Shown here piece by piece: positions 175 through 51,603 of a stretch of DNA of 64,000 nucleotides (position 1 is its first letter; every line of letters begins with the position of its first letter). The stretch spans positions 1-64,000 of IMG/VR virus record IMGVR_UViG_3300027908_000003. One strand, given 5' to 3'. This DNA is from a virus. The notes beneath the pieces are model-generated. The model was not told where the DNA came from, made no database searches, and worked only from the letters and a program-made list of their open reading frames with translations. A program made the position numbers and the translations under genes.

Positions 175-411
175 ATGTCTATTGAAGAAGGAGGGGGATT
201 TCCGCCAAAAGAGTTTGATACTTTTAGCGCAATAACTTATATGGAGCAAGCTTATTATAATTTGGAGCATATTCTTAGTGTGACTAAATACAATAAGAAA
301 ATTCTCAAAGATATTAATAATCTAGATGAAGAAAAATTCTCAGAAGTTCTAGCAATTCTAACTCCAATTTATGATAAGTGGAGTAGAGAAAAGCGTAAGT
401 GGGGGAATTAA
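175..411 (+). CDS. hypothetical small protein, tandem paralog of the next ORF
   Basis: 78-aa ORF. Its stop overlaps the next start (TAATG). N-terminus IEEGGGFPPKEF resembles VEEGDGIPPRNF of the next ORF. Confidence 0.5.
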   Translation: MSIEEGGGFPPKEFDTFSAITYMEQAYYNLEHILSVTKYNKKILKDINNLDEEKFSEVLAILTPIYDKWSREKRKWGN

Positions 412-740
412 TGGCTGTTGAAGAAGGGGATGGAATTCCACCACGAAATTTTCCCTCGCTAATAAATTCAGTAATTAATGAGACAGTACCAGATATCCCT
501 TTGGTACTGCGTAAAGAGATAATTAAGCTGTGTGCTATGGCAGGATTTGATCGGGAAGAATCTCTCTTTGCGCCTAATTCCCCCGAGAGTTGGGAGAATG
601 CACACAATGGTAAAGATGAGGAAGACATTACTGTTTCTGCAGCAGAGTCGGCCATAAGAAAGTTCTGTGAACTAGAAGGAATTAAACAAGAGTTTAAAGG
701 AGAGACTTACCGCCTCGCTGGCCCTTGGAGAAAGCCGTGA
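411..740 (+). CDS. hypothetical protein, tandem paralog of the preceding ORF
   Basis: ORF track gives a GTG at 399. An ATG at 411 overlapping the upstream TAA is the more likely start. Shares the EEGxGxPP(K/R)xF N-terminus. Confidence 0.5.
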   Translation: MAVEEGDGIPPRNFPSLINSVINETVPDIPLVLRKEIIKLCAMAGFDREESLFAPNSPESWENAHNGKDEEDITVSAAESAIRKFCELEGIKQEFKGETYRLAGPWRKP

Positions 741-1188: not shown

Positions 1189-1467
1189 ATGACAAATTCC
1201 GAGCTAGACCCGGCGGGACGCGACGTGGAGTTGCTGCGGGCTGCGGTAGAGCACCGCATCGTTTGGAACGACCACCATGAGTGCTGGGACCTCTGGCCGC
1301 GACTCGCAGGCAGAATCGAGGTCAGCGAGATCGTGCCCCTTGAGGCCGACGCACTCGACCATCTAGTGCACGTCGGCGTGATCATCCTGCGGTCCGATCA
1401 CCGCATCTGGGTTTCGGATCACAGTAAGCGAACCCTCGCGCAGTGGGAGGAGATGACCTGTGCCTGA
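1189..1467 (+). CDS. island ORF A, hypothetical (92 aa)
   Basis: The ATG and first four codons lie in AT-rich flank and the rest in GC-rich DNA. N-terminus MTNSELDPAG is paralogous to the starts of ORFs B and C. Confidence 0.6.
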   Translation: MTNSELDPAGRDVELLRAAVEHRIVWNDHHECWDLWPRLAGRIEVSEIVPLEADALDHLVHVGVIILRSDHRIWVSDHSKRTLAQWEEMTCA

Positions 1468-1858
1468 GCTAGACCCGGTAGGGCTGCCGAACGAACGGCC
1501 AGTACAGGAGCGCGGCACGACCGAGGCCGCGATTGAAGCGCTCATCCTTCACGACTGGCAGAGCGAGTGGCGTGCGGGCGTTGAGCACTACGCGGTCGGG
1601 CAGCACTTCGCCATCGCCGTGACCACACACCCGGAGAGTCCCGAGCCGTGGGAGCCCGATGCGCTGCTGGCGTTCGTGCCTTCGAGCGGGCACGGGGTGA
1701 CGATCGTGCCGTGCCTTCGTGCTGAAAACATCTGGTGCCCCCTGGGTACCTGCTGGCGCATCTTGTGTGCTTTGAAGGGAGAGCGGCCACTGCCCTACCG
1801 CTTCACGCTAAGCGAAGCGATGGAGAGCGCCCTCAGAGAGGCGGTGCCTGATGTCTGA
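1460..1858 (+). CDS. island ORF B, hypothetical (132 aa, GTG start)
   Basis: GTGCCTGA overlap with the ORF A stop. Begins (V)PELDPVGL, encoded by the 22-nt junction repeat. Confidence 0.6.
   Translation: MPELDPVGLPNERPVQERGTTEAAIEALILHDWQSEWRAGVEHYAVGQHFAIAVTTHPESPEPWEPDALLAFVPSSGHGVTIVPCLRAENIWCPLGTCWRILCALKGERPLPYRFTLSEAMESALREAVPDV
1464..1485 (+). repeat. 22-nt junction repeat CTGAGCTAGACCCGGTAGGGCT, copy 1
   Basis: Identical to 1855-1876. Begins at the stop codon of ORF A and encodes ELDPVG of ORF B. A degenerate copy, GAGCTAGACCCGG, sits at 1201-1213. Confidence 0.9.
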
Positions 1859-3029
1859 GCTAGACCCGGTAGGGCTAGAGGCAGCGGCACTGGACGAGGC
1901 GGTGGAGAGCTACCGCCATATGTTCGCCCCTGGCGTGTCGCGAGAGTCGACGTTTCGTAATGGCTGGGCCGCTCGCGCCGCCTACCTCTCAGTACAGGGA
2001 CGGGACGGCTCGGAGCTTGATCGCCTCCGAGATGGAATGGCCGAGCGCGGATTCATCGTGGGTTGTAACCCCGACGGTGTGGACGATTTGGTCGAGGCGA
2101 CGCTGTTGGTGGTTAGCGAGCTCCTCTCAGTACAGGAGCAGCCGCCACCTCGACTGGATCGGATTTCCTTTGAGAGCGGCTATGTCACGGCGATGAGCGC
2201 CGTGTGGTCCGGGGTCTATCCGGCGAATGAGTCAGCACTTGCACTGTTCGTGAAGAAAGCGTGGAAGGGGACGGGGGCCGATGCGTCAGTACAGGAGCAG
2301 CCAGACGAGCGGGAGATTTGGCGAGTCCAGCAGATCATCGTCGGCGATCTGAGGCCCTCTCGTAAGAAGGATGCGAGAGAGATCGCGATGGCGATTCTCG
2401 CCGTGCGGCAGAAGGAGACGACGAATCCTGCGGGTGCCCCAAAGCTGACCGATACCAAGCCCGGCGTAGAACCCGTCACCGAGACACCGCAGGAGCAATG
2501 GGCGCGGGAATCGAACGAGCATCAGGCCCAAGTCGAGCAGCGGCAGGAGCCAGACGAGCGGATGCGGGTCACGCTTCTGCGGTGCGGCCAGTGCAACAAG
2601 GTGGCGTCGAAGGAGGCGTGGGACAAGGAGTGGTGGGCTGAGCGGTCACGTCGGATGAGCGACAAAGAGGCCATCGCCGAGCACGAATGGAGCACCGAGT
2701 CCACGAGCGACTATGGCCTAGATGAACGTGACGTGTGCCCTCACTGCAGCTATGTACACTCCGACAACGAGGAAAGCCACGTCGAGGAAGTGGACGGCTC
2801 CGCTCTCGCCGTGTGGGACACCGAGCAGCAGCCCAAAGAGCCAGACGGGCGGTTGAGAAGGCTGGCGGAAGCGATCCACCGCCTCAACGTGGATTGGACT
2901 CACCTACGCACTGCCTGCGGCGATCCCCAGTGTCTCGGAGACTGTGAGTACGTGCAAACGATCAACCTCATTCTCAATGATGTTCTCGGCATTGAGCGGT
3001 CGGCTGAGCAGAAGGAGCAGGGGCGATGA
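1851..3029 (+). CDS. island ORF C, hypothetical modular protein (392 aa) with CxxC pairs
   Basis: ATGTCTGA overlap with the ORF B stop. Begins MSELDPVGL. Carries repeated SVQEQP / EQRQEPDER / DTEQQPKEPDGR linker motifs and a CGQC...CPHC Zn-ribbon-like segment. Confidence 0.6.
   Translation: MSELDPVGLEAAALDEAVESYRHMFAPGVSRESTFRNGWAARAAYLSVQGRDGSELDRLRDGMAERGFIVGCNPDGVDDLVEATLLVVSELLSVQEQPPPRLDRISFESGYVTAMSAVWSGVYPANESALALFVKKAWKGTGADASVQEQPDEREIWRVQQIIVGDLRPSRKKDAREIAMAILAVRQKETTNPAGAPKLTDTKPGVEPVTETPQEQWARESNEHQAQVEQRQEPDERMRVTLLRCGQCNKVASKEAWDKEWWAERSRRMSDKEAIAEHEWSTESTSDYGLDERDVCPHCSYVHSDNEESHVEEVDGSALAVWDTEQQPKEPDGRLRRLAEAIHRLNVDWTHLRTACGDPQCLGDCEYVQTINLILNDVLGIERSAEQKEQGR
1855..1876 (+). 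repeat. 22-nt junction repeat, copy 2
   Basis: Identical 22-mer spanning the ORF B stop and the ORF C start. Confidence 0.9.
2127..2143 (+). repeat. 17-nt repeat TCAGTACAGGAGCAGCC, copy 1
   Basis: Exact copy at 2286-2302. Related CAGTACAGG cores at about 1500 and 1990. Always read in frame as (S)VQ(E/G). Confidence 0.9.
2286..2302 (+). repeat. 17-nt repeat TCAGTACAGGAGCAGCC, copy 2
   Basis: Exact 17-mer. Followed by CCAGACGAGCGG, which recurs at 2550-2561. Confidence 0.9.
2815..2830 (+). repeat. 16-nt repeat GGGACACCGAGCAGCA, copy 1
   Basis: Exact copy at 3174-3189. Encodes (W/R)DTEQQ in ORF C. Confidence 0.9.
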
Positions 3030-3889
3030 GCGCGCCAGAGCTTACGCAAGACGAGCAACGCGCGATGGAGTCCGCGTGGGCCGCTTCACCGATGCGCGGG
3101 GCGAGCAAAGTCGGCTGGCCCTGGGCGTGGCGCGCTGCGCGCGACTACTACACCGAGGACGCTCTCACTGTGCGGGACACCGAGCAGCAAGAGCAGCCGA
3201 AGCCTGAATGGACCTGGGCGCGTCTATATACGCGGCTGGATGCCGCGATCCTTGAGCACAAACGGGCCACCGCGCCGCTTAGGTCACGCGACACGGACCG
3301 CGCGCTTTGGGCTGCCTACGAGGCGATAGACCGTGATCTGTTTGGTGTGCCCAAGCGGCGGGAGCTCAGGGCACCCACAGCATGGACTGACGATTCAGCC
3401 GAGACGTTGGACGCTGCGGCCGAGCAGCAGGAGCAACCAACGGCGCGTCTAGGTGGACATTGGGTTTGGGTCGAGGATGAGCCTACGAGCACTTGGGCAT
3501 CATGCCAGCGGTGCTCGCCGACCAAGGCCTGTCCGCAGCACCAGGAGGAGGCGAAGGCGTATTGGGAGGGCTTTCGCATACGCGAGGCCGAGCAGGGGGC
3601 GCGACCCTCTCAGCGCGTCACGCACGGCCGTCACTGCATCTGCTCGGCGTGTGCCGCTCAGGACTGGGCCGAACCGGGCCTCGCGTCGTGTGGGATGCAC
3701 GGCCCTTCTTGCCCTGCGGTTTACGCACCGCTCGGTGCTGCTGGTGACACGGTGTCCGCGCCGTCGGGGGAGCAGGAGCCAGCGGAGGCGGACCCGGTGC
3801 GTGCGGCTCTGATCGAGCTTGTGCGGCTCAAGGACTGTAAGGACGGTCGCGAGTCCGTCGGCGGTAGCCCGAAGATAGAGCTAAATTAA
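3026..3889 (+). CDS. island ORF D, hypothetical Cys-rich protein (287 aa)
   Basis: ATGA overlap with ORF C. Contains DTEQQEQP and AAEQQEQP linkers. The last codons and the stop (GAG CTA AAT TAA) lie in the AT-rich flank. Confidence 0.6.
   Translation: MSAPELTQDEQRAMESAWAASPMRGASKVGWPWAWRAARDYYTEDALTVRDTEQQEQPKPEWTWARLYTRLDAAILEHKRATAPLRSRDTDRALWAAYEAIDRDLFGVPKRRELRAPTAWTDDSAETLDAAAEQQEQPTARLGGHWVWVEDEPTSTWASCQRCSPTKACPQHQEEAKAYWEGFRIREAEQGARPSQRVTHGRHCICSACAAQDWAEPGLASCGMHGPSCPAVYAPLGAAGDTVSAPSGEQEPAEADPVRAALIELVRLKDCKDGRESVGGSPKIELN
3174..3189 (+). repeat. 16-nt repeat GGGACACCGAGCAGCA, copy 2
   Basis: Exact 16-mer in ORF D. A related CCGAGCAGCAGGAGCAACC sits at about 3420. Confidence 0.9.
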
Positions 3890-3917: not shown

Positions 3918-4193
3918 ATGTCGCGCAAGGTAAATTCCCCAAGAATAATAGATATAAATGAATTTGAATCATTTATATTCAGAACAAATGGATGCTGGTG
4001 GTGGACTGGTAGTGTTGATAAAAGAAGTGGTAGAGCTATGTATCATAATAGAAATGCTGCTACTATTGCTTATGAGCTATATTATAATACTAAATTGGAG
4101 CATAGCATGATTATTAAACAAATATGCAATAATGTAAAGTGTGTTAGAAAAGATCATCTCCAACTCGCGCGCAAAACTTTCCCTGGAAGATAA
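3918..4193 (+). CDS. HNH homing-endonuclease-like protein
   Basis: NGCWWWTGS...AATIAYELYY...QICNNVKCVRKDHLQL follows the phage HNH pattern (GCWxWxG ... H.C.N..C.....HL). Starts 29 nt after the island. Confidence 0.7.
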   Translation: MSRKVNSPRIIDINEFESFIFRTNGCWWWTGSVDKRSGRAMYHNRNAATIAYELYYNTKLEHSMIIKQICNNVKCVRKDHLQLARKTFPGR

Positions 4194-4862: not shown

Positions 4863-5060
4863 ATGACTAAGAATGAAGCAATAGAATTAGTAAATAGCTG
4901 GGCAGAAGAAGCGGAAAATGGTAATTATCATGATCTAGCCACAATACTTTATTACTTGTCAGATACTTGCTCTTTTTCTCCAGGCAGGTATGTGATCATT
5001 AAGTCTGTTGATGAGAACCCTATTGCTAATAATATTGTAGAATTGGAGATCAATGAGTAA
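4863..5060 (+). CDS. hypothetical protein
   Basis: 65-aa ORF overlapping the LysRS start by 8 nt. Confidence 0.5.
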   Translation: MTKNEAIELVNSWAEEAENGNYHDLATILYYLSDTCSFSPGRYVIIKSVDENPIANNIVELEINE

Positions 5061-6294
5061 GTCTATCTCACGTCAACAAAAGCTAGAAAAACTGATTAAT
5101 CCTTACCCGCGCAATTTCCCCGACCGAGTTTCAATTCAATCTGTTCTTCATGAATTTAAGGTAGCAAGAGATCTAAGCCTTCTTGATGGCAATATAAAGA
5201 ACCAATCATATAAAATAGCAGGTAGAATATCTGCCAGAAGAGATATGGGTAAGAACATTTTCTTTGATTTATTCGATCAGACTGGATCTATTCAATTGCA
5301 TGTTAAACTACTAGATTTTGTAGAGAAAGATGATCTTGATCTAGAGATTGACCTTGGAGACTGCTACGGCGTAGAAGGCATATTAACTTCAAATCTTCGC
5401 GGAGAGCCACTACTGCTAATTCATAATTGGACTCTCCTAGCAAAGGCCCTCCGTGAGCCACCGGATAAATTCCACGGAATTTCTAAGCCTGAATCACGGT
5501 ATCGTCATAGGGAGTTGGATCTACTCTCCTCGCCCGATTCTCGCGCTGTGTTTAAGGCTAGAGCAGAAATTGTATTTGAGATCAGAAAGTGGCTAAATGA
5601 ACGAGACTATATTGAGATTGAAACTCCAGTTCTCCAACCAATCTATGGTGGAGCAACTGCTAGACCGTTTGTCACGAAACATAATGCGCTTGGACAAGAT
5701 TTCTTCCTCTCCATATCAAGCGAGCTGTATCTCAAGCGCGCCCTGGTGGGAGGTTATGATAGGGTTTATTCAATAAGTAGATGCTTCAGAAACGAGGGAA
5801 TTTCTCCAGAACATAATCCAGAGTTTACAAATGTAGAGATATTTGCTACTTGCGAGAATTATTTCACAATAGCAACACTTACTGAAAATCTATTACATCA
5901 TCTGTGTAAGAGATTTGATGTACCAATGTTTGAGATTGATCGAATGATGAATCTAAAATCTTCTGATTGGCCTCTCAGCAGAAAATACGCACAAAATGAA
6001 AATCTTGCAGAATCATGGGAGATGTTTGTAGACGGTATGGAGATTGCTAGCGGAGCATCTGATTTGAATGACCCTCGTGAGCAATACGAGAGGTGGCATG
6101 AAAGTTATAGTGAGGACCCAGCAACTTGTAATCCGTATGATGAAAATTACATAGAAGCACTAGAACAAGGGGCTTTGCCTTGGGCCGGAGTAGGAATTGG
6201 AATAGACAGACTATGTATGCTTCTACTAAATAAGAAGAACATTCGTGATACTATCATGTTTCCCCTTCTTCGCGCAAAATCTGCTGGAGATTAA
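5053..6294 (+). CDS. lysS: lysyl-tRNA synthetase, class II (compact, 413 aa)
   Basis: N-terminal OB-like domain. PPDKFHG...RYRHRELDL, ETPVLQPIYGGATARPF, SELYLKR, motif 2 CFRNEGISPEHNPEFTNVE and motif 3 GVGIGIDRLCMLL all match bacterial LysS signatures. Confidence 0.85.
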   Translation: MSKSISRQQKLEKLINPYPRNFPDRVSIQSVLHEFKVARDLSLLDGNIKNQSYKIAGRISARRDMGKNIFFDLFDQTGSIQLHVKLLDFVEKDDLDLEIDLGDCYGVEGILTSNLRGEPLLLIHNWTLLAKALREPPDKFHGISKPESRYRHRELDLLSSPDSRAVFKARAEIVFEIRKWLNERDYIEIETPVLQPIYGGATARPFVTKHNALGQDFFLSISSELYLKRALVGGYDRVYSISRCFRNEGISPEHNPEFTNVEIFATCENYFTIATLTENLLHHLCKRFDVPMFEIDRMMNLKSSDWPLSRKYAQNENLAESWEMFVDGMEIASGASDLNDPREQYERWHESYSEDPATCNPYDENYIEALEQGALPWAGVGIGIDRLCMLLLNKKNIRDTIMFPLLRAKSAGD

Positions 6295-6580: not shown

Positions 6581-6767
6581 TGGAGGAAATTGGAATTATC
6601 AATCATTTAGAATACAAGAAGAGGCTGACAGAATACATTCTTTTTTGAAAGCTGTTGGAGATTCAGAGCATATAATTGATTGGGCAGAGAGCTGTGATAC
6701 AAGCCGTGAACTGGCAGAAAAAGAATTATATGAACTATGGCTTAAAGTATTCGATGAATGGTATTAA
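6576..6767 (+). CDS. hypothetical protein
   Basis: 63-aa ORF in a tight array. Confidence 0.5.
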   Translation: MSGGNWNYQSFRIQEEADRIHSFLKAVGDSEHIIDWAESCDTSRELAEKELYELWLKVFDEWY

Positions 6768-6768
6768 A

Positions 6769-7032
6769 ATGAATGTTAGATACATAAATAAACCAATTCA
6801 TGGGGTTTCAAGTAAATTCAACACAGCAGGAATCGGCGAGGTAGTAGTATATTTCCCAGAAGGTGATGCTACTTCAGAGTTTATTAGAGAATTACAAGTT
6901 GAATTATCAGATGGCAGTTGGAAGGATATGTCTAAAGCATTTAGAGATAAAACTTTAATTCCCGATATTTACAACACTTGCTTCATGGAGTCTAGGACTG
7001 ATGAGGAACGGGAGAAAGGATATTATTTATAA
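6769..7032 (+). CDS. hypothetical protein
   Basis: Internal ATG (MNVRYINK) of track ORF 6676-7032, directly after the upstream stop. Confidence 0.5.
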   Translation: MNVRYINKPIHGVSSKFNTAGIGEVVVYFPEGDATSEFIRELQVELSDGSWKDMSKAFRDKTLIPDIYNTCFMESRTDEEREKGYYL

Positions 7033-7198
7033 TGTGTGCTTGTGAAGATGGTGATAGATGTATATATCACAATAAGATGCTAAAAGATTATCAAGAAATG
7101 TGGAAGGCTCTTATGAAGATCAATAAAGGTGAAGTTGAAGAAGATATTGGTAACTATGCTGGCAAAGTTATAGAGTCTAGTCCGAGATATTTACACCT

Positions 7199-7297
7199 AT
7201 GAATAATATACACAAGGCAGAAAAATTTGAGAAAGATTATACTATTTCTCCTCCCATGCCAAATTCTCCTCGTAACATTTCACCAACTAGGACATAA
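7199..7297 (+). CDS. 32-aa mini-ORF built from repeated segments
   Basis: MNNIHKAEKFEKDYTISPPMPNSPRNISPTRT. AEKFEKDY resembles the N-terminus of ORF 8774. The 3' part is the 47-nt repeat also found at 8271-8318. Confidence 0.3.
   Translation: MNNIHKAEKFEKDYTISPPMPNSPRNISPTRT
7247..7293 (+). repeat. about 47-nt repeat, copy 1 (tctcctcccatgccaaattctcctcgtaacatttcaccaactaggac)
   Basis: About 85 percent identical by eye to 8271-8318. Both lie just upstream of the next ORF start (7308 and 8325). Confidence 0.8.
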
Positions 7298-7307
7298 AAA
7301 AAAATAA

Positions 7308-7523
7308 ATGAAATCATATATTATTAAGATTATTGGATGTGACGATACTACATATATTTTAATTAAAGATATCTCAGATGATGAAATTCACACAATTAGA
7401 TACCTTGCAGATTTATCTAAAGAAATTTCTCGTTATTCATGTGAACCAATAATTGAAATAGTAGAAGAAGATGATTTACGACCAGATTTATATAAAGAAT
7501 CCAGAATGAACTTGCCCTTATGA
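7308..7523 (+). CDS. hypothetical protein
   Basis: 71-aa ORF. Confidence 0.5.
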   Translation: MKSYIIKIIGCDDTTYILIKDISDDEIHTIRYLADLSKEISRYSCEPIIEIVEEDDLRPDLYKESRMNLPL

Positions 7524-7604: not shown

Positions 7605-7853
7605 ATGAATGTGCCAGATGATTTAACTAATCCAGATAAAAATGGTGTTTTGCATCCTCCAGATATGGTGATACATTGGGCTGGATATCCCACCGCTTGC
7701 TGCCATCTTTATAGATACTCAAATGGCGTAATGCCTAATGAAGTTGATAGAGATGATGATGTAGATTATCTGCATATTTGTGATCCAAATGATTTTATTC
7801 AAGATATTCAAGATTGGGTAAATACTACAAAATATATCGGAGAAAATAAATAA
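7605..7853 (+). CDS. hypothetical protein
   Basis: 82-aa ORF whose C-terminus DWVNTTKYIGENK is repeated in the 6482 mini-ORF. Confidence 0.5.
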   Translation: MNVPDDLTNPDKNGVLHPPDMVIHWAGYPTACCHLYRYSNGVMPNEVDRDDDVDYLHICDPNDFIQDIQDWVNTTKYIGENK

Positions 7854-7875
7854 TGGAAAATAATTTTCCTTGGCC
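7845..7875 (+). repeat. 31-nt exact repeat, copy 2
   Basis: Identical 31-mer at the junction of ORFs 7605 and 7853. Confidence 0.9.
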
Positions 7876-8119
7876 GTCTGATTTTGAAATAGATATAGCA
7901 CATTCTTCTGATAATTTAATCAATCATAGAAATTGGTCTTGCTATGACTTTAGTGTCTGTAAACATACTGTAATGAAAGTAGTTGATGTTGATCAATGGG
8001 AGTTACAAGTTTGTATTTCTTGCGGAGCTATGGTACACAAAATATGTAACCATATTATGATATGGAATGAGTCTGGCTCAATGTTAAGGTGCAGTAACTG
8101 TGGAATTGATGGTACTTAA
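7853..8119 (+). CDS. hypothetical Cys-rich protein
   Basis: 88 aa. The MENNFPWPS start is repeated at 6482. Contains CISCG...CSNCG. Confidence 0.5.
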   Translation: MENNFPWPSDFEIDIAHSSDNLINHRNWSCYDFSVCKHTVMKVVDVDQWELQVCISCGAMVHKICNHIMIWNESGSMLRCSNCGIDGT

Positions 8120-8270
8120 ATGTGCAATATTATAACAATTAATCTTCCAGATAAATGTACTGAAGGTGATTTAATGATGGCTCAAGGTGCTATAATTCAA
8201 GCTTCTACTAATTTTGTTGCATGGGAAGATTTATACGGAGAAGATTCCGGGAGGGAAAGATAATGCTATA

Positions 8271-8318
8271 TCTCCTCCAGGCCAAAATTCTCCTCGCAAT
8301 ATCTCACCAACTAGGAAC
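8271..8318 (+). repeat. about 47-nt repeat, copy 2
   Basis: tctcctccaggccaaaattctcctcgcaatatctcaccaactaggaac, lying just upstream of ATG 8325. Confidence 0.8.
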
Positions 8319-8324
8319 TATTAA

Positions 8325-8777
8325 ATGAGTAAAGATAAAAAATATGATCCATCTATGAACAAAACTTATGAGATTGAGATAAATTATTATAATGATCTAG
8401 AAGGTGCAAGAAAATGGTGCGCAGAATTACATTTAATAGAGAATCGTTATGGAGTTAATGATATTAATTTAAAGACACGTTTAAGTGTTCACACTGCTTC
8501 TAGTAAAGAAGAAGCATATAGACATGCAGTTATCGAAATGAACAATCATAGAAATAAAAAAAAAGAAGATACTGTGTTTGATAAGAAAAAATTTATTGTT
8601 CAAACTTTTTATCCGTTCGCTGAAGTCAATGCTTATGGTCCTGTAACTGGTATAGATAATGCTGAATTATTAAAAAATAAGTTAGAAGATCAAGCTAGAG
8701 TAAAGAGATTAGGACATGGATATAGTGCTCAGATAATTGAGCTTGAGTCTCCTGATATACCATCAATAACAGTATGA
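8325..8777 (+). CDS. hypothetical protein
   Basis: 150-aa ORF with an ATGA overlap on the next ORF. Confidence 0.55.
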   Translation: MSKDKKYDPSMNKTYEIEINYYNDLEGARKWCAELHLIENRYGVNDINLKTRLSVHTASSKEEAYRHAVIEMNNHRNKKKEDTVFDKKKFIVQTFYPFAEVNAYGPVTGIDNAELLKNKLEDQARVKRLGHGYSAQIIELESPDIPSITV

Positions 8778-9015: not shown

Positions 9016-9087
9016 GCCTCCGTAGCTGAGCGGAATTAGCACAGCCCTTCTAAGGCTGGGACGCGCGTTCGAGTCGCGCCGGGGGCA
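9016..9087 (+). tRNA. tRNA-Arg (anticodon UCU)
   Basis: Hand-folded cloverleaf. Acceptor GCCTCCG/CGGGGGC. D stem GCT/AGC with a GG loop. Anticodon stem CAGCC/GGCTG with loop CT-TCT-AA. T arm GCGCG-TTCGAGT-CGCGC. Discriminator A. 72 nt. Confidence 0.85.
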
Positions 9088-9229
9088 CTGAGGGCTCTCT
9101 CTATCTATCACCAAGGGACCAGAATCGCGCGAAATTCTCCCCGGTTCCTTGATATACTAACCAGCGCATATGCCGCGCCAGAATTGGCGCAATAGAAAAA
9201 GAAATACTTTCATGGAAGGTTTCAAATAA

Positions 9230-9787: not shown

Positions 9788-10243
9788 ATGCCTAATCCAA
9801 TCATAGGTAGAGAATTAGAAGTCCCATTCTACGTGGGAGAAGAAGCTGTAGAAAGGAGCCACATAATGGGGCTAGAAACTTATATTACCCCAACTTCTTC
9901 TGGGATAATTCCAGAAACATTGATTGAAACAAAAACTATTAACTATGAATATAATCCAGTTACAGGAAAACATGAAGCAGTAGAAAAAGTTAGTGAATTA
10001 GGAAAATATAAAGGTGGCAACTTCTTTGGATATAGCTTAAAATCCAAAGGTGCTGCTGAAGTTATTTTTTATGACAATGCAGAAAAAGCAGAAGGTAAAC
10101 CAATAGCTGGTCCTATTTATTTTACTGCTAAAGAAAGTAAATCATTTATGGACCCAACCCCTGTTAAGTTCAAAGAAGCTATATACATGAAAATTGTATC
10201 GGGGGAAATTGAATCAGGGGCAATTTGGGCGGATGTAGAGTGA
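9788..10243 (+). CDS. hypothetical protein
   Basis: 151 aa. N-terminus MPNPIIGRELEVPFYVGEE resembles the N-terminus of tail protein 49930-51603. Confidence 0.55.
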   Translation: MPNPIIGRELEVPFYVGEEAVERSHIMGLETYITPTSSGIIPETLIETKTINYEYNPVTGKHEAVEKVSELGKYKGGNFFGYSLKSKGAAEVIFYDNAEKAEGKPIAGPIYFTAKESKSFMDPTPVKFKEAIYMKIVSGEIESGAIWADVE

Positions 10244-37990: not shown

Positions 37991-38404
37991 TCATATCCGG
38001 CCTCTTTCTTTTTCACAAGCAATACAATATCTTCTGCCACGTTTTATTATAGTGTTCTCATCATCAAAAGGATGCCAAAATTTACAATGAGTTTTTCTTT
38101 TATTTATAGCAGAAGCAGAATTAGATCTTTCATTATTTTTTATGCCTGTAAGTAACTGTAAATGATTAGGATTAACACAGCTAGTGTTATTGCAACGATG
38201 ATCCACTTGAAGACCAGCAGGAATTGAGCCAAAATGTAATGTCCAACTAAACAAATGCGCCTTCCTCGTTTTATATGGAGCACAAGTAAAATTTCCGTAT
38301 CCTTTTTGATCCCTTGCTGCAAGCCAATTCCAACACTGATCTTCTAATCCAACATCTACCTTGTTCCAGAAAAGCAAGATCCTAACTGGGTTGTCAATTT
38401 CCAC
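37991..38404 (-). CDS. HNH endonuclease
   Basis: QCWNWLAARDQKGYGNF...AHLFSW...VDHRCNNTSCVNPNHLQL is the canonical phage HNH pattern. Confidence 0.8.
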   Translation of the reverse strand: MEIDNPVRILLFWNKVDVGLEDQCWNWLAARDQKGYGNFTCAPYKTRKAHLFSWTLHFGSIPAGLQVDHRCNNTSCVNPNHLQLLTGIKNNERSNSASAINKRKTHCKFWHPFDDENTIIKRGRRYCIACEKERGRI

Positions 38405-42664: not shown

Positions 42665-42786
42665 CCGTTAACTTATAACTGGATAGAATCCAAACTCGTC
42701 TTGAGGGCTCCAGCATTCGCTACAAAGATTTTCGTAATACGAATTCTTTGCTAGGAATCTTCCGCAAGATGAGCATCTTTTCTTTT

Positions 42787-42870
42787 GCCCCAATGATGAA
42801 ATCGGTAAACATAGGGGACTTAAAATCCCCGGCTTGTAAAAGCTTGTAGGTTCGAGTCCTACTTGGGGCA
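42787..42870 (+). tRNA. tRNA-Leu (anticodon UAA), class II with a long variable arm
   Basis: Hand-folded. Acceptor GCCCCAA/TTGGGGC. D stem ATG/CAT with a GG loop. Anticodon stem GGGGA/TCCCC with loop CT-TAA-AA. Variable arm GGCTT-gtaa-AAGCT. T arm GTAGG-TTCGAGT-CCTAC. 84 nt. Confidence 0.85.
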
Positions 42871-43080
42871 TGACGAATTTTCCTCCCATATAGTCATCCA
42901 ATCATTCATACACGGCTTGCATAGATATCCTGCAGGCTGTCCCATTATGAAAACAGAATGAGTAGCTTGCTTATTCATTTCTCGTCTTTGATGCTGTGTA
43001 TTACAAAAATGCATTTGATCATTTCTTAGAGACTTCAACTCCAATATCCCTATAGACTTAGATGCGTATTTCTTAGGCAT
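42859..43080 (-). CDS. hypothetical Cys-containing protein
   Basis: 73-aa ORF overlapping the helicase stop. Its 3' end overlaps the tRNA-Leu 3' end by 12 nt, so the true extent is uncertain. Confidence 0.35.
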   Translation of the reverse strand: MPKKYASKSIGILELKSLRNDQMHFCNTQHQRREMNKQATHSVFIMGQPAGYLCKPCMNDWMTIWEENSSCPK

Positions 43081-49929: not shown

Positions 49930-51603
49930 TCACATAAATCCATGTCGCCATCCAGCGCCAAATTTAGTAGTAGCACCAAACTTGGATCCTTGTATATATA
50001 AATCATTCCACATAGGCTCTAACTTCATCCATTCAACAGTAGGGGAAAGAGGTTCTAAGTAATTTGATCCTAATGAATTTTCTATAGTTTCTTCATTACA
50101 GTCAATAATAATATAATCACCTTCCGCCACTATTCCAAGCCATTCTAATTTTTGTCCATTCGTCAAAGACTGAATAAGAACATTTTCAGCAGGACCATAT
50201 AAATATAAAATAGGCTCAACAAACACAGATCCCTTATTATTTATACTGAGCAAATTAGAATTCTTAGTTAGTATAGCATCTGTGTATGATCTATATTTTA
50301 ATGGGTATGATCTAGGATATTTTCTACCTAATACTCCAGTACTTTCTTCACTAGTAGGAGTAATAAATCTAGTTAGTTTTACAGAAGAAAAAGCTCTATA
50401 ATCAGAAGTTTTCATAGGTATCTGGAAAGCGCGTTTAAATCTAGTAAGACTAGTCTGTTCATCTTTAATAGATATAGAACTTAGCTTACGGGCCATAAAC
50501 TCTACGTCACCGGGGTAAATAGATTCTATTCTAAAATTATCAAATGACCATTTGGTCAACTTTTCCCCGACAATTCCTACCTGAGACAATATTTCATTAC
50601 CAAATAATTCTTCATATTCTCCAACTAAATATGATGTTGCAGATATTATTGGTTGCCCTTCCGAAGAGGGTTCTTCCTTCCAAAACTGTAGTATGCATTC
50701 ATTATCTTTCTTAATTCCTCTTATCCAAAAAGGTTGTCCTGCTTTCGGTCTTTGAGAAGAATTTAGCAATTCACTTTTAATAATTCTTCTTTCCCCTTTA
50801 ACAAAGGCTATAATGTTTAAAGAAGGATAAAAGGATTTTTCTTCTACAAAATTAACCATTAAATAATTTTCACTATTTTTAGCGCATAATATGAATCCAA
50901 TTTCATTTTCATTTAAAGATCCAGATACACACTTAATATCCATTTGAACATCACAATAAGTTCTTTTCTCAGATGCTCTTAGAAAAGCAACTTTTTCTTC
51001 ATTCTTCCATTGTAAATATCCGTTTTCAGCCTTTAAACTGCTCATAGATCCTAATAGCGGGATATAATTACCACCACTATTTTCTACTGTAGAATTAGGA
51101 TTATATTCTAATATAGTCTTAGGATCATCAAACGGGTCATATATATCAAACCATCTAAACTTCAGTGGAGACTCTTCTAAGGGGGCAAAAGCGGCCTTGA
51201 GGTTTTTTTCTAAATACTTCAATACTTGTAGGCTACCTGCTTCTATGAATCCTGTAAGCATGACGTTGCGTCCACCGTAAAAAGCGTCATATGCCCATTC
51301 GCCCGATTTTCCCGCCCGAGCCTCGCGACTATCTCTAACTTCAGCATCATCTAAACCAGAAATAGAAGTGACACGAATCAGATCAGATTGATACCTATCA
51401 TTGATAATTTGCCCATTATATTCAATTAGCGACTGAACTCCAAAAGAAAGCGGAGAATCCCAAGGAAAAGCTAGATGATAATATCGTACATTAGCTACAG
51501 TACCTAATATTTCTTTTTCTGATTTTCTATATTCTAATTCAAATATTTCCCTCTCATCACCTACTAAGAATGGAATCTCAAGTTCTGATCCTATAACTGG
51601 CAT
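49930..51603 (-). CDS. tail protein (possible distal tail / baseplate component)
   Basis: 557-aa ORF in the tail module. Assignment is by position only. Confidence 0.4.
   Translation of the reverse strand: MPVIGSELEIPFLVGDEREIFELEYRKSEKEILGTVANVRYYHLAFPWDSPLSFGVQSLIEYNGQIINDRYQSDLIRVTSISGLDDAEVRDSREARAGKSGEWAYDAFYGGRNVMLTGFIEAGSLQVLKYLEKNLKAAFAPLEESPLKFRWFDIYDPFDDPKTILEYNPNSTVENSGGNYIPLLGSMSSLKAENGYLQWKNEEKVAFLRASEKRTYCDVQMDIKCVSGSLNENEIGFILCAKNSENYLMVNFVEEKSFYPSLNIIAFVKGERRIIKSELLNSSQRPKAGQPFWIRGIKKDNECILQFWKEEPSSEGQPIISATSYLVGEYEELFGNEILSQVGIVGEKLTKWSFDNFRIESIYPGDVEFMARKLSSISIKDEQTSLTRFKRAFQIPMKTSDYRAFSSVKLTRFITPTSEESTGVLGRKYPRSYPLKYRSYTDAILTKNSNLLSINNKGSVFVEPILYLYGPAENVLIQSLTNGQKLEWLGIVAEGDYIIIDCNEETIENSLGSNYLEPLSPTVEWMKLEPMWNDLYIQGSKFGATTKFGAGWRHGFM

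Follow-up and report, generated by a model that had tools for sequence, protein, structure and literature searches.

The window analysed here, a stretch of 64,000 nt (positions 1 to 64,000 of the IMG/VR virus record IMGVR_UViG_3300027908_000003), belongs to a tailed phage that encodes a 2262-aa tape measure protein, terminase, DnaB, DNA polymerase and a class II tRNA synthetase, together with two tRNAs. Its GC content is about 36-39% throughout, except at 1201-3885, where it reaches 64%. This island of about 2.7 kb carries four co-oriented open reading frames (ORFs), i1 to i4, whose stops and starts overlap. Two of the overlaps hold a perfect 22-nt repeat, which an earlier note, made from the letters of the window alone, had read either as a translational re-initiation element or as a recombination site delimiting gene cassettes. 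We report that this repeat, called motif A below, is real, and that it is the gene-start member of a set of short junction sequences conserved at the nucleotide level.

The island and its four genes

1189..1200, + strand: AT-rich native start ATGACAAATTCC, with AAGAAAGAAA before it; judging by the sequence and the GC switch, it gives i1 its start codon and first four codons
1189..1467, + strand: ORF i1, 92 aa
1201..1213, + strand: left boundary of the island, with the motif A core of 13 nt (GAGCTAGACCCGG), then GCGGGACGC (ELDPAGR)
1460..1858, + strand: ORF i2, 132 aa, a 20-aa leader (motif A and a degenerate VQE linker) followed by a module
1461..1485, + strand: motif A copy 1; its 22-mer part is 1464-1485, with the i1 stop TGA (1465-1467) and i2 codons 2-9 inside
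1851..3029, + strand: ORF i3, 392 aa, six modules joined by in-frame linkers
1855..1876, + strand: motif A copy 2, with the i2 stop TGA (1856-1858) and i3 codons 2-9 inside
3026..3889, + strand: ORF i4, 287 aa, overlapping i3 by ATGA (3026-3029) and without motif A
3878..3883, + strand: GAGCTA hexamer at the right GC-to-AT transition, four nt ahead of TAA

The borders of the island are abrupt. The GC fraction, 0.357 on the left side and 0.352 on the right, rises to 0.644 at 1201-3878, and the switch falls exactly at 1200/1201. The left joint is the first base of the motif A core, and the partial copy that the earlier note had placed at this boundary is confirmed, its 13 nt being exact at the GC switch. 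A similar AAGAAAGAAA-ATG start region stands ahead of the island ORF in L238, a low-GC relative. At the other end, the last codons and the stop of i4 lie in AT-rich DNA, and the right joint cuts a module homologous to a gene downstream of the modular locus in two high-GC relatives, L004 and L086. The GAGCTA hexamer that the earlier note had seen at this edge is indeed there and could form a 6-bp microhomology with 1201-1206 at the left end, but with 25 copies on the + strand of the window its presence at both ends is only suggestive and of modest significance. Stop/start overlaps of 4 and 8 nt are the rule in these phages, whether or not the motif is present (the ATGA at 3026-3029 is an example).

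Searches of i1-i4 with Pfam and PHROGs found nothing, and Pfam gave no domain in i3, i4 or the proteins P0001-P0007 of our collection. No homologue of i1 was found besides itself. The module of i2 occurs elsewhere as stand-alone proteins without the 20-aa leader, every module of i3 matches different small proteins, often free-standing, and the first module of i4 resembles an AT-rich ORF at the same position in L237, another low-GC relative (pairwise E = 6e-5). AlphaFold models of i3 (single sequence, pLDDT 39) and i2 (five sequences, pLDDT 53) were too weak for fold searches; in them residues 1-22 of i2 are unstructured, and the leader and linkers come out as coil or at low confidence.

The island is not an assembly chimera, because the same island was read at two loci from two assembly sources (an ENA scaffold and a Logan contig) and its right junction also occurs in three short contigs of other assemblies or samples. 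The i3 protein is found on five contigs in all. Two of its versions in other assemblies, P0001 and P0008, shift to an alternative frame midway (e.g. ...QYRSSRHLDW), which can be either an assembly or sequencing frameshift or a real variant; in the linker DNA the alternative frame stays free of stops for long stretches (window 1960-2196).

Motif A, a repeat just past the start codon

The exact 22-mer CTGAGCTAGACCCGGTAGGGCT stands twice on the + strand, at 1464-1485 and 1855-1876, as the earlier note had stated, and each copy contains the upstream stop: TGA 1465-1467 closes ORF 1189..1467, and TGA 1856-1858 closes ORF 1460..1858. No third copy exists in the window at up to 3 mismatches, and none of 100 shuffles gave a match. 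Its 13-nt core is exact at 1201-1213 and starts again at 1466 and 1857; counting the core, the three copies of motif A all lie inside 700 bp of the island, and the rest of the window and the upstream locus of the same contig (L001) have no copy. A decayed copy had also been suspected at the start of the fourth gene; there, 3035-3053 agrees with it at no more than some 10 of 19 nt (the "PEL" codons), which is a weak likeness, and SAPEL does precede the motif in two relatives.

Motif A is placed just past the start codon, the 22-mer beginning 4 nt after the first base of that codon, and is translated; it lacks AGGAG, and a Shine-Dalgarno-like GGAGG or GAGG lies 9-12 nt upstream. The encoded leader is (x)ELDP(V/A)GL: ELDPVG forms residues 3-8 of ORFs 1460..1858 and 1851..3029, and ELDPAG residues 5-10 of ORF 1189..1467. 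The residue that precedes LDP is E, D or R, and two alleles follow it, CCG GTA GGG CTA and CCG GCA GGA CTA. In its two other frames the motif has stops, one TGA and three TAG, and the internal in-frame linkers described below have none. An upstream ORF that enters motif A in either of these frames therefore ends inside it, which produces the 8-nt start/stop overlap. In all three or four copies of the form xTGnCTGAGCTAGAC the internal TGA is the stop of the upstream ORF, 5 nt past the start codon. The motif also contains an imperfect palindrome, CTAGaCCC-GGTA-GGGCTAG; it is weak, with 7 bp, and is present in one allele only, being weakened in the GCA/GGA allele.

Two further candidates were rejected. 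A hairpin pairing the 22-mer with the end of i2 (arms 1792-1812/1855-1875, 76% complementary) is equalled by chance pairs and has a fold z of -1.0. The demarcation motif PxxxxDPxGL of Rhs and polymorphic toxins marks the end of the Rhs/YD-repeat core, before the variable toxin tip. Here only DPVGL matches it, no YD or Rhs Pfam domain is found in i1-i4 and the peptide is N-terminal in small proteins; we regard the likeness as coincidence.

Junction sequences inside the genes

At least six classes of short repeats conserved at the nucleotide level are present in the island, motif A included. All the short direct repeats other than motif A are in frame inside i2-i4: TCAGTACAGGAGCAGCC (SVQEQP), CAGCCAGACGAGCGG (QPDER), GTGTGGGACACCGAGCAGCAG (VWDTEQQ), GCCGAGCAGCAGGAGCA (AEQQEQ) and CCGTCGGGGGAGCAGGAGCC (PSGEQEP). 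The in-ORF linker classes are SVQEQP, VQEQPDER, AVWDTEQQ, AEQQEQP and PSGEQE, located as follows.

1499..1516, + strand: degenerate linker CCAGTACAGGAGCGCGGC (PVQERG) in the i2 leader
1986..2001, + strand: linker B variant CTCTCAGTACAGGGAC (LSVQGR)
2124..2148, + strand: linker B CTCTCAGTACAGGAGCAGCCGCCAC (LSVQEQPP), 100% identical to the copies in L004 and L086
2286..2315, + strand: linker C TCAGTACAGGAGCAGCCAGACGAGCGGGAG (SVQEQPDERE), 100% identical over 29-30 nt to L004 and L234
2544..2561, + strand: linker CAGGAGCCAGACGAGCGG (QEPDER)
2808..2831, + strand: linker D GCCGTGTGGGACACCGAGCAGCAG (AVWDTEQQ)
3167..3190, + strand: second copy of linker D (TVRDTEQQ)
3419..3438, + strand: linker F GCCGAGCAGCAGGAGCAACC (AEQQEQP)
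3758..3788, + strand: linker E GCGCCGTCGGGGGAGCAGGAGCCAGCGGAGG (APSGEQEPAE)

The conservation of the junctions extends to their codons, which hardly vary and in many cases are rare ones. Valine is GTA in all 15 VQEQP linkers and in the five Val codons of motif A (5/5), against 9% of Val codons elsewhere in these genes, and leucine is CTA in 18 of 30 junction codons, against 10% elsewhere. Aspartate at junctions is always GAC (23/23) and glutamate always GAG (53/53). Since homologues of the i2 body stand alone without the 20-aa leader, motif A is not part of a conserved protein family. The earlier note had named an outcome that would speak against its proposals, namely a 22-mer found only as paralogous N-terminal coding sequence with synonymous variation. 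What we find instead is a motif on unrelated bodies, i2-body homologues that lack it, and synonymous sites that are almost fixed.

Shared junction repeats apparently fragment metagenome assemblies, in which contigs begin at or just after the repeats. Three short contigs from other samples (L241, L242 and L243) begin at window position 3785 or 3798, that is, in the last bases of linker E or about 10 nt beyond.

Relatives and homology breakpoints

The high-GC relatives of the island are phage contigs of 58-66% GC, in which the junctions are 93-100% identical and flank unrelated or reordered modules. The 25-mer TGCCTGAGCTAGACCCGGTAGGGCT of motif A copy 1 (1461-1485) is identical to L004:9724-9748, on a 107-kb phage scaffold of 59% GC from the same ENA soil project, where it opens a different, 93-aa gene and likewise holds the stop of an unrelated upstream gene; the next gene there, P0006, begins with the motif variant ATGACCGACCTGGACCCGGTAGGGCTAGAGGCAGCGGCG. 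The identical 25-mer is also found in L086, a variant of the L004 phage. For motif A copy 2, the likeness to relatives runs on to about 1888 (LEAAA). The leader ELDP(V/A)GL is carried by i1, i2, i3, L004_a, L004_b, L234_a, L234_b and L235_a, on bodies that are unrelated, and the L012 copy of the motif stands some 28 codons inside an ORF, with no stop overlap.

When the island is compared by blastn with L004, L086, L234, L235 and L012, nearly only the junctions are recovered (16-33 nt at 93-100% identity), together with a few shared module bodies at 81-93% identity, and each genome compared has its own number and order of modules and linkers. Homologues of i3 are few and mosaic, with the same modules reordered and the same linker peptides between them. 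An exhaustive phmmer search with i3 gave 62 matches, one module each, many of them free-standing proteins of 56-160 aa.

The breakpoints of homology coincide with the junctions. The flanks of the modular locus are 96-98% identical between L004 and L086; within the modular gene the likeness breaks off at 44 nt, directly behind motif A plus LEAAAKA, and returns 2.1 kb downstream, in the last seven codons (SDLEGEA). The content between these points is unrelated, the whole modular gene being replaced from motif A on, and in L086 it consists of 1.6 kb of other modules joined by the same linkers. The window and L235 share the module at 2128-2315, with a body about 91% identical, identical linkers on both sides and unrelated sequence just outside. 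Between L234 and L235, shared blocks begin and end at linkers, and one module that is a separate ORF in L234 is fused in frame in L235. The check for cassette variation among relatives that the earlier note had suggested is thus positive in all three pairs (L004/L086, window/L235 and L234/L235).

Ahead of their stops, L004 and L086 share only SDLEGEA. An "end-type" junction, GCCCCTACCGTCTGGCCTTGAG (PLPSGLEG), is found in L004 (11800-11845), L234 (7430-7464) and L235 (1752-1793); the ORFs that carry it at the C-terminus are otherwise different, and its identity is 90-100% over 29-42 nt. More distant multi-module relatives (P0012, P0020, P0021, P0030, P0047, P0051, P0053 and P0061) each have a repeated linker of their own, the lineage peptides being SSAPE, AAREEP/REDTERP, ASPVAxERT, VEASGE, LPSEP, VVRDTEREHEP and SAEHPE. 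Linkers therefore appear to evolve in concert within a lineage, a pattern that would be expected of recombination patches in concerted evolution and equally of cleavage sites that co-evolve.

Large scans confine motif A to a small group of contigs. INPHARED gave no match to the flanks or the island by megablast and blastn, and a 20-mer of motif A had 0 matches in IMG/VR, where TCAGTACAGGAGCAGCC had one, in L012. Metagenome and genome collections scanned with the 17-nt CTRGACCCGGTAGGGCT returned at least about 220 matches, all of them chance except those in L066 and L086; the chance matches lack a start context or other linkers, the pattern being too short. Longer and more specific junction patterns include GACCCGGTAGGGCTAGAGGCAGC, CAGTACAGGAGCAGCCAGACGAGCGG and GCCGTGTGGGACACCGAGCAGCAG. 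A 16-mer of linker D had 29 matches in IMG/VR, of which few are clearly in the family (L238, the L008 contig, L012 and possibly L252) and the remainder are indistinguishable from chance. L252 (IMGVR_UViG_3300031823_000012) has, at about 1640-1880, a 63% GC ORF with CGKPCEKVAPVVRDTE in a locus of 54% GC, and may be another lower-GC phage with a module of this family.

The locus in low-GC phages

3918..4193, + strand: AT-rich HNH endonuclease gene, directly downstream of the island; conserved neighbour of the variable locus in L237 and L238

Both low-GC relatives keep the HNH gene and the genes downstream of it. Upstream of it, at the place of the island, L238 has a different 64% GC gene of modules in a single ORF (7818-8525), with the linker VVRDTEREHEP, a C-terminus like that of P0053, and its start and stop in AT-rich DNA; in L237 the position is taken by the AT-rich ORF that is like the first module of i4 at its N-terminus. 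No AT-rich paralogue of the island modules was found at E <= 1e-3 in the window, L001, L237 or L238, the L238 island excepted. Nor was an empty, island-free site found: L237 and L238, the only relatives of the low-GC phage that came to light, are too distantly related (their tRNA synthetases are 56-60% identical in amino acids to that of the window); a search with a second flank protein of the low-GC phage gave no locus.

The contigs of these relatives, at about 40% GC, contain GC-rich (55-65%) transposase genes (L237 185-1162; L238 14028-15131 and 16381-16971), for an IS1595-like transposase with a zinc ribbon and for a DDE transposase. The presence of such insertion-sequence genes suggests that the low-GC phages probably replicate in a high-GC host shared with the donors, where they could meet donor phages. 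There is precedent for a difference of this size in phiKZ, which has about 37% GC and grows in Pseudomonas aeruginosa, at about 66%. As for the HNH gene, any role in making breaks at this locus is speculation.

Discussion

Short repeats, conserved down to the codon, stand at the borders of modules and genes, and homology between relatives starts and stops at them. On balance we lean towards reading the junctions as homology patches for the exchange of modules and genes, with motif A doubling as a portable start/stop junction. The gene family would then be one of hypermosaic small-protein genes of 58-66% GC soil phages, in which junctions of 16-35 nt, conserved at the nucleotide level, separate interchangeable modules of some 50-100 codons, and the internal junctions join modules in frame into multi-module ORFs. 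Recombination between phages co-replicating in one cell would start or be resolved in identical stretches of 17-30 nt, with catalysis perhaps by short-homology phage recombinases, and the outcome would be the swapping of modules or whole genes with the reading frame and a working start junction kept. A 2.7-kb block would have entered a siphovirus-like phage of 36-38% GC, at a variable locus just upstream of the HNH gene, joined on the left exactly where the motif A core begins and on the right inside a module. From these patterns we infer the recombination mechanism, the arrival of the donor by co-infection of a shared high-GC host, and the maintenance of the junctions for this role.

Several observations weigh against this explanation. 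Of the few substitutions in the LDPxGL core, most (about 4 of 6) are synonymous, which hints at some protein-level constraint on the leader peptide. The copies come from about seven independent contigs and are related by descent, and the fixed codons could be due to recent spread rather than to selection. The right end of the island has no junction motif, and the empty site was not found, so that the GAGCTA microhomology stays a candidate. No recombinase was identified beside the locus, and neither a recombination intermediate nor a population polymorphism was directly observed. Finally, lineages of the wider superfamily each have their own repeated linker, which is also what a co-evolving protease predicts. 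A more ambitious version, which we consider possible but doubtful, is that the junctions belong to an organised system of module exchange across unrelated phages of one soil host range, whatever their own GC content, and that they are selected for evolvability or kept by a dedicated enzyme, not merely inherited. A common pool of small modules, probably for host takeover or anti-defence, would then be kept exchangeable, and modules would be concatenated, split into genes and moved between phages of 37% and 60-66% GC.

The rival that we take most seriously, and still think unlikely, places the signal in the protein: ELDP(V/A)GL would be an N-terminal targeting or processing tag, the linkers rich in E, Q and P would be polyprotein cleavage sites, and the nucleotide identity would be a by-product of recent duplication or exchange. 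One short leader on unrelated proteins, modules that are free-standing elsewhere, the mostly synonymous changes in LDPxGL and the coil or low confidence predicted for leader and linkers (in weak models) are all in its favour, as are the lineage-specific repeated linkers of distant members (AAREEP, VRDTEREHEP, SSAPE, ASPVAxERT), expected with a co-evolving protease, and the fact that polyvalent proteins are processed by embedded peptidases (PMC5512222). Yet no peptidase domain is found in these proteins, which have no Pfam domains, or among the listed neighbour genes, the loci lie among early-type small genes and not among virion genes, and the residue ahead of LDP varies radically (E, D, R). 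A protein signal alone also leaves unexplained the fixed rare codons (GTA in 15/15) and the blocks that end exactly at junction edges. Far less credible, in our view, is that nothing functional is involved and that the repeat results from a recent local duplication of a gene 5' end or from an assembly artefact. There are only two full copies in the window, and the genes at 175..411 and 411..740 share an N-terminal peptide, presumably by duplication; but that AT-rich pair has about 73% nucleotide identity with synonymous changes, unlike the perfect 22-mer, the same 25-mer exists in a different phage of other base composition, identity has sharp edges with unrelated flanks, and the recurrence of the i3 protein on five contigs, of the island at the two loci read and of the right junction in three more contigs speaks against an artefact. 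This trivial origin is already largely refuted.

The two proposals of the earlier note fare differently. Under the site-specific one, the junctions would be sites for a recombinase or a homing-type nuclease, in the manner of integrons, shufflons or homing endonucleases, with GAGCTA as the crossover core. Part of it holds: the content between and after copies varies among relatives, with breakpoints at the motif, identity is sharp-edged, motif A contains an imperfect palindrome, GAGCTA is present at both island ends, and an HNH gene borders the island, as one does the matching variable locus of L237 and L238. A dedicated system is nonetheless quite improbable. At least six junction sequences exist, not one site, the 22-mer being only one of several motifs that are mostly in frame inside ORFs; every copy is in direct orientation and in frame, the GCA/GGA allele has a weaker palindrome, GAGCTA is common (25 copies in the window), and a module is truncated at the right island end. 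None of the high-GC loci with the motifs has the HNH family of the low-GC phages. Only L236 lists a tyrosine recombinase gene, placed two genes ahead of the modular one; in the gene tables of L001 (the contig of the window), L004, L008, L234 and L235 no integrase match appears, and neither a dedicated recombinase nor a hairpin site was found. Homology-mediated exchange at short conserved patches fits better than a site-specific cassette system. The translational proposal, in which the repeat would favour re-initiation after termination, or translational coupling, where stop and start overlap, as proposed for the start-associated sequences of Cluster K, is very improbable and finds no support. 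It draws on the TGA inside the motif, which is the upstream stop 5 nt past the start codon, and on the Shine-Dalgarno-like GGAGG/GAGG 9-12 nt upstream. However, motif A lies downstream of the start codon and has no AGGAG, junction RNA folds no better than shuffles (z +0.35 to -1.0), no Rfam family matches, and start/stop overlaps are general in these phages without the motif; the L012 copy, about 28 codons into its ORF, is off any stop, and the internal linkers are without any start or stop context.

The start-associated sequences (SAS) of Cluster K are 13-bp elements, GGGATAGGAGCCC, placed 3-7 bp upstream of start codons with the Shine-Dalgarno core AGGAG, in 11-19 copies per genome that are distributed across its non-structural half (Pope et al. 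2011, PMC3203893). Like motif A, SAS and ESAS are short asymmetric repeats at the starts of non-structural genes of different families, sometimes with the upstream stop inside. Motif A differs in being translated and downstream of the start, in having three copies confined to the island and in its unrelated sequence; the SAS consensus has 0 matches at <=2 mismatches in the window, and the 22-mer is dissimilar to it.

A nearer parallel is offered by the gp38 adhesins of T2/T6-type phages, in which conserved glycine-rich motifs (GRMs) separate hypervariable segments and exchanges occur in or near the motifs (Tetart et al. 1998; Trojet et al. 2011, PMC3157838). In both cases short conserved coding motifs alternate with variable segments and chimeras arise at the motifs. 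GRMs, however, never change their order and are believed to build the structural core of a single domain, whereas here independent small-protein modules change in order and number; what joins them resembles unstructured linkers, and one junction type also serves as a gene start. In the hyperplastic regions of T4-type phages, promoter-early stem-loops (PeSLs) are intergenic regulatory cassettes of a sigma-70 promoter and a terminator hairpin (Arbiol et al. 2010, PMC2839356; Comeau et al. 2014, PMC4122927). They resemble the junctions in that repeats border non-essential ORFs in variable regions and the breakpoints of indels or replacements among relatives fall at the repeats; replacement breakpoints lie at repeats here too, in the three pairs compared above. 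Unlike PeSLs, the junctions are coding, have no promoter or terminator signature (there is no promoter-like or terminator-like site on the + strand within 1201-3885) and form no significant hairpin.

For the leader, the closest analogue is the T4 capsid targeting sequence (PMC3012670), a short N-terminal peptide that is the sole common part of diverse, fast-evolving small proteins, which are packaged in the capsid and from which the prohead protease removes it; the leader differs from it by its nucleotide-level conservation and by the internal linkers, which T4 internal proteins lack, and its loci are not near virion genes. Polyvalent proteins are large and contain identifiable conflict-related enzymatic domains, in many cases with a peptidase embedded among them (Iyer et al. 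2017, PMC5512222). As in i3, unrelated units are concatenated in a polypeptide of a mobile element, possibly for joint deployment; i3 and i4 differ in having no Pfam domain, and the text of PMC5512222 does not contain the word "linker". Among the systems compared, the gp38 motifs and PeSLs are thus the closest functional analogues, with the T4 capsid targeting sequence closest for the leader, and motif A is a member of none of them.

In the modular theory of lambdoid phages, short border sequences direct the reassortment of modules (Susskind and Botstein 1978; Clark et al. 2001, HK620). Those boundary sequences are rare and mostly intergenic, whereas the junctions described here are abundant, in frame and codon-fixed. 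The joints of phage mosaics are usually ascribed to rare illegitimate recombination followed by selection. Conserved junctions that guide recombination are known, in few clear cases such as the gp38 motifs and PeSLs, and this locus is a compact and testable one in which the guiding sequences would lie inside coding DNA, in frame and fixed in their codons, and link independent small-protein modules whose genes are fused, split and reassorted with the frame kept. It also documents a very recent flow from phages of about 60% GC to one of 37% GC, with segments that are 90-100% identical and show no amelioration, which implies a shared host and that base composition is no barrier. In practice, annotation pipelines will call each multi-module ORF one hypothetical protein. 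Should the modules prove to act in host takeover or anti-defence, they could be mined by way of their junctions.

Other features of the low-GC phage

A second, distant HNH-like sequence lies at window 38153-38335 on the - strand, with 29% identity (tblastn) to the HNH gene at 3918-4193. The aminoacyl-tRNA synthetase, of class II (Asp/Asn/Lys-type), is encoded at 5053-6294, and the two tRNAs, tRNA-Arg(TCT) and tRNA-Leu(TAA), at 9016-9088 and 42786-42871; these genes are consistent with a phage whose codon usage differs from that of its host. An FtsK/SpoIIIE-type ATPase gene is located on the contig of the window (L001 6098-7249), about 2 kb upstream of the start region of the window and among small early-type genes, and L238 has a homologue of it at 6683-7453.

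Shared N-termini also occur in AT-rich genes of the window. The adjacent genes at 175-411 and 411-740 have only their first 13 or so residues in common, M(S/A)(I/V)EEG(G/D)G(F/I)PP(K/R)xF; this leader is shared as in motif A, without nucleotide fixation (about 73% nucleotide identity, with synonymous changes). A common N-terminus is likewise found in a 151-aa protein (9788-10243, + strand) and a 557-aa Dit-like distal tail protein (49930-51603, - strand), namely MPNPIIGRELEVPF and MPVIGSELEIPF.

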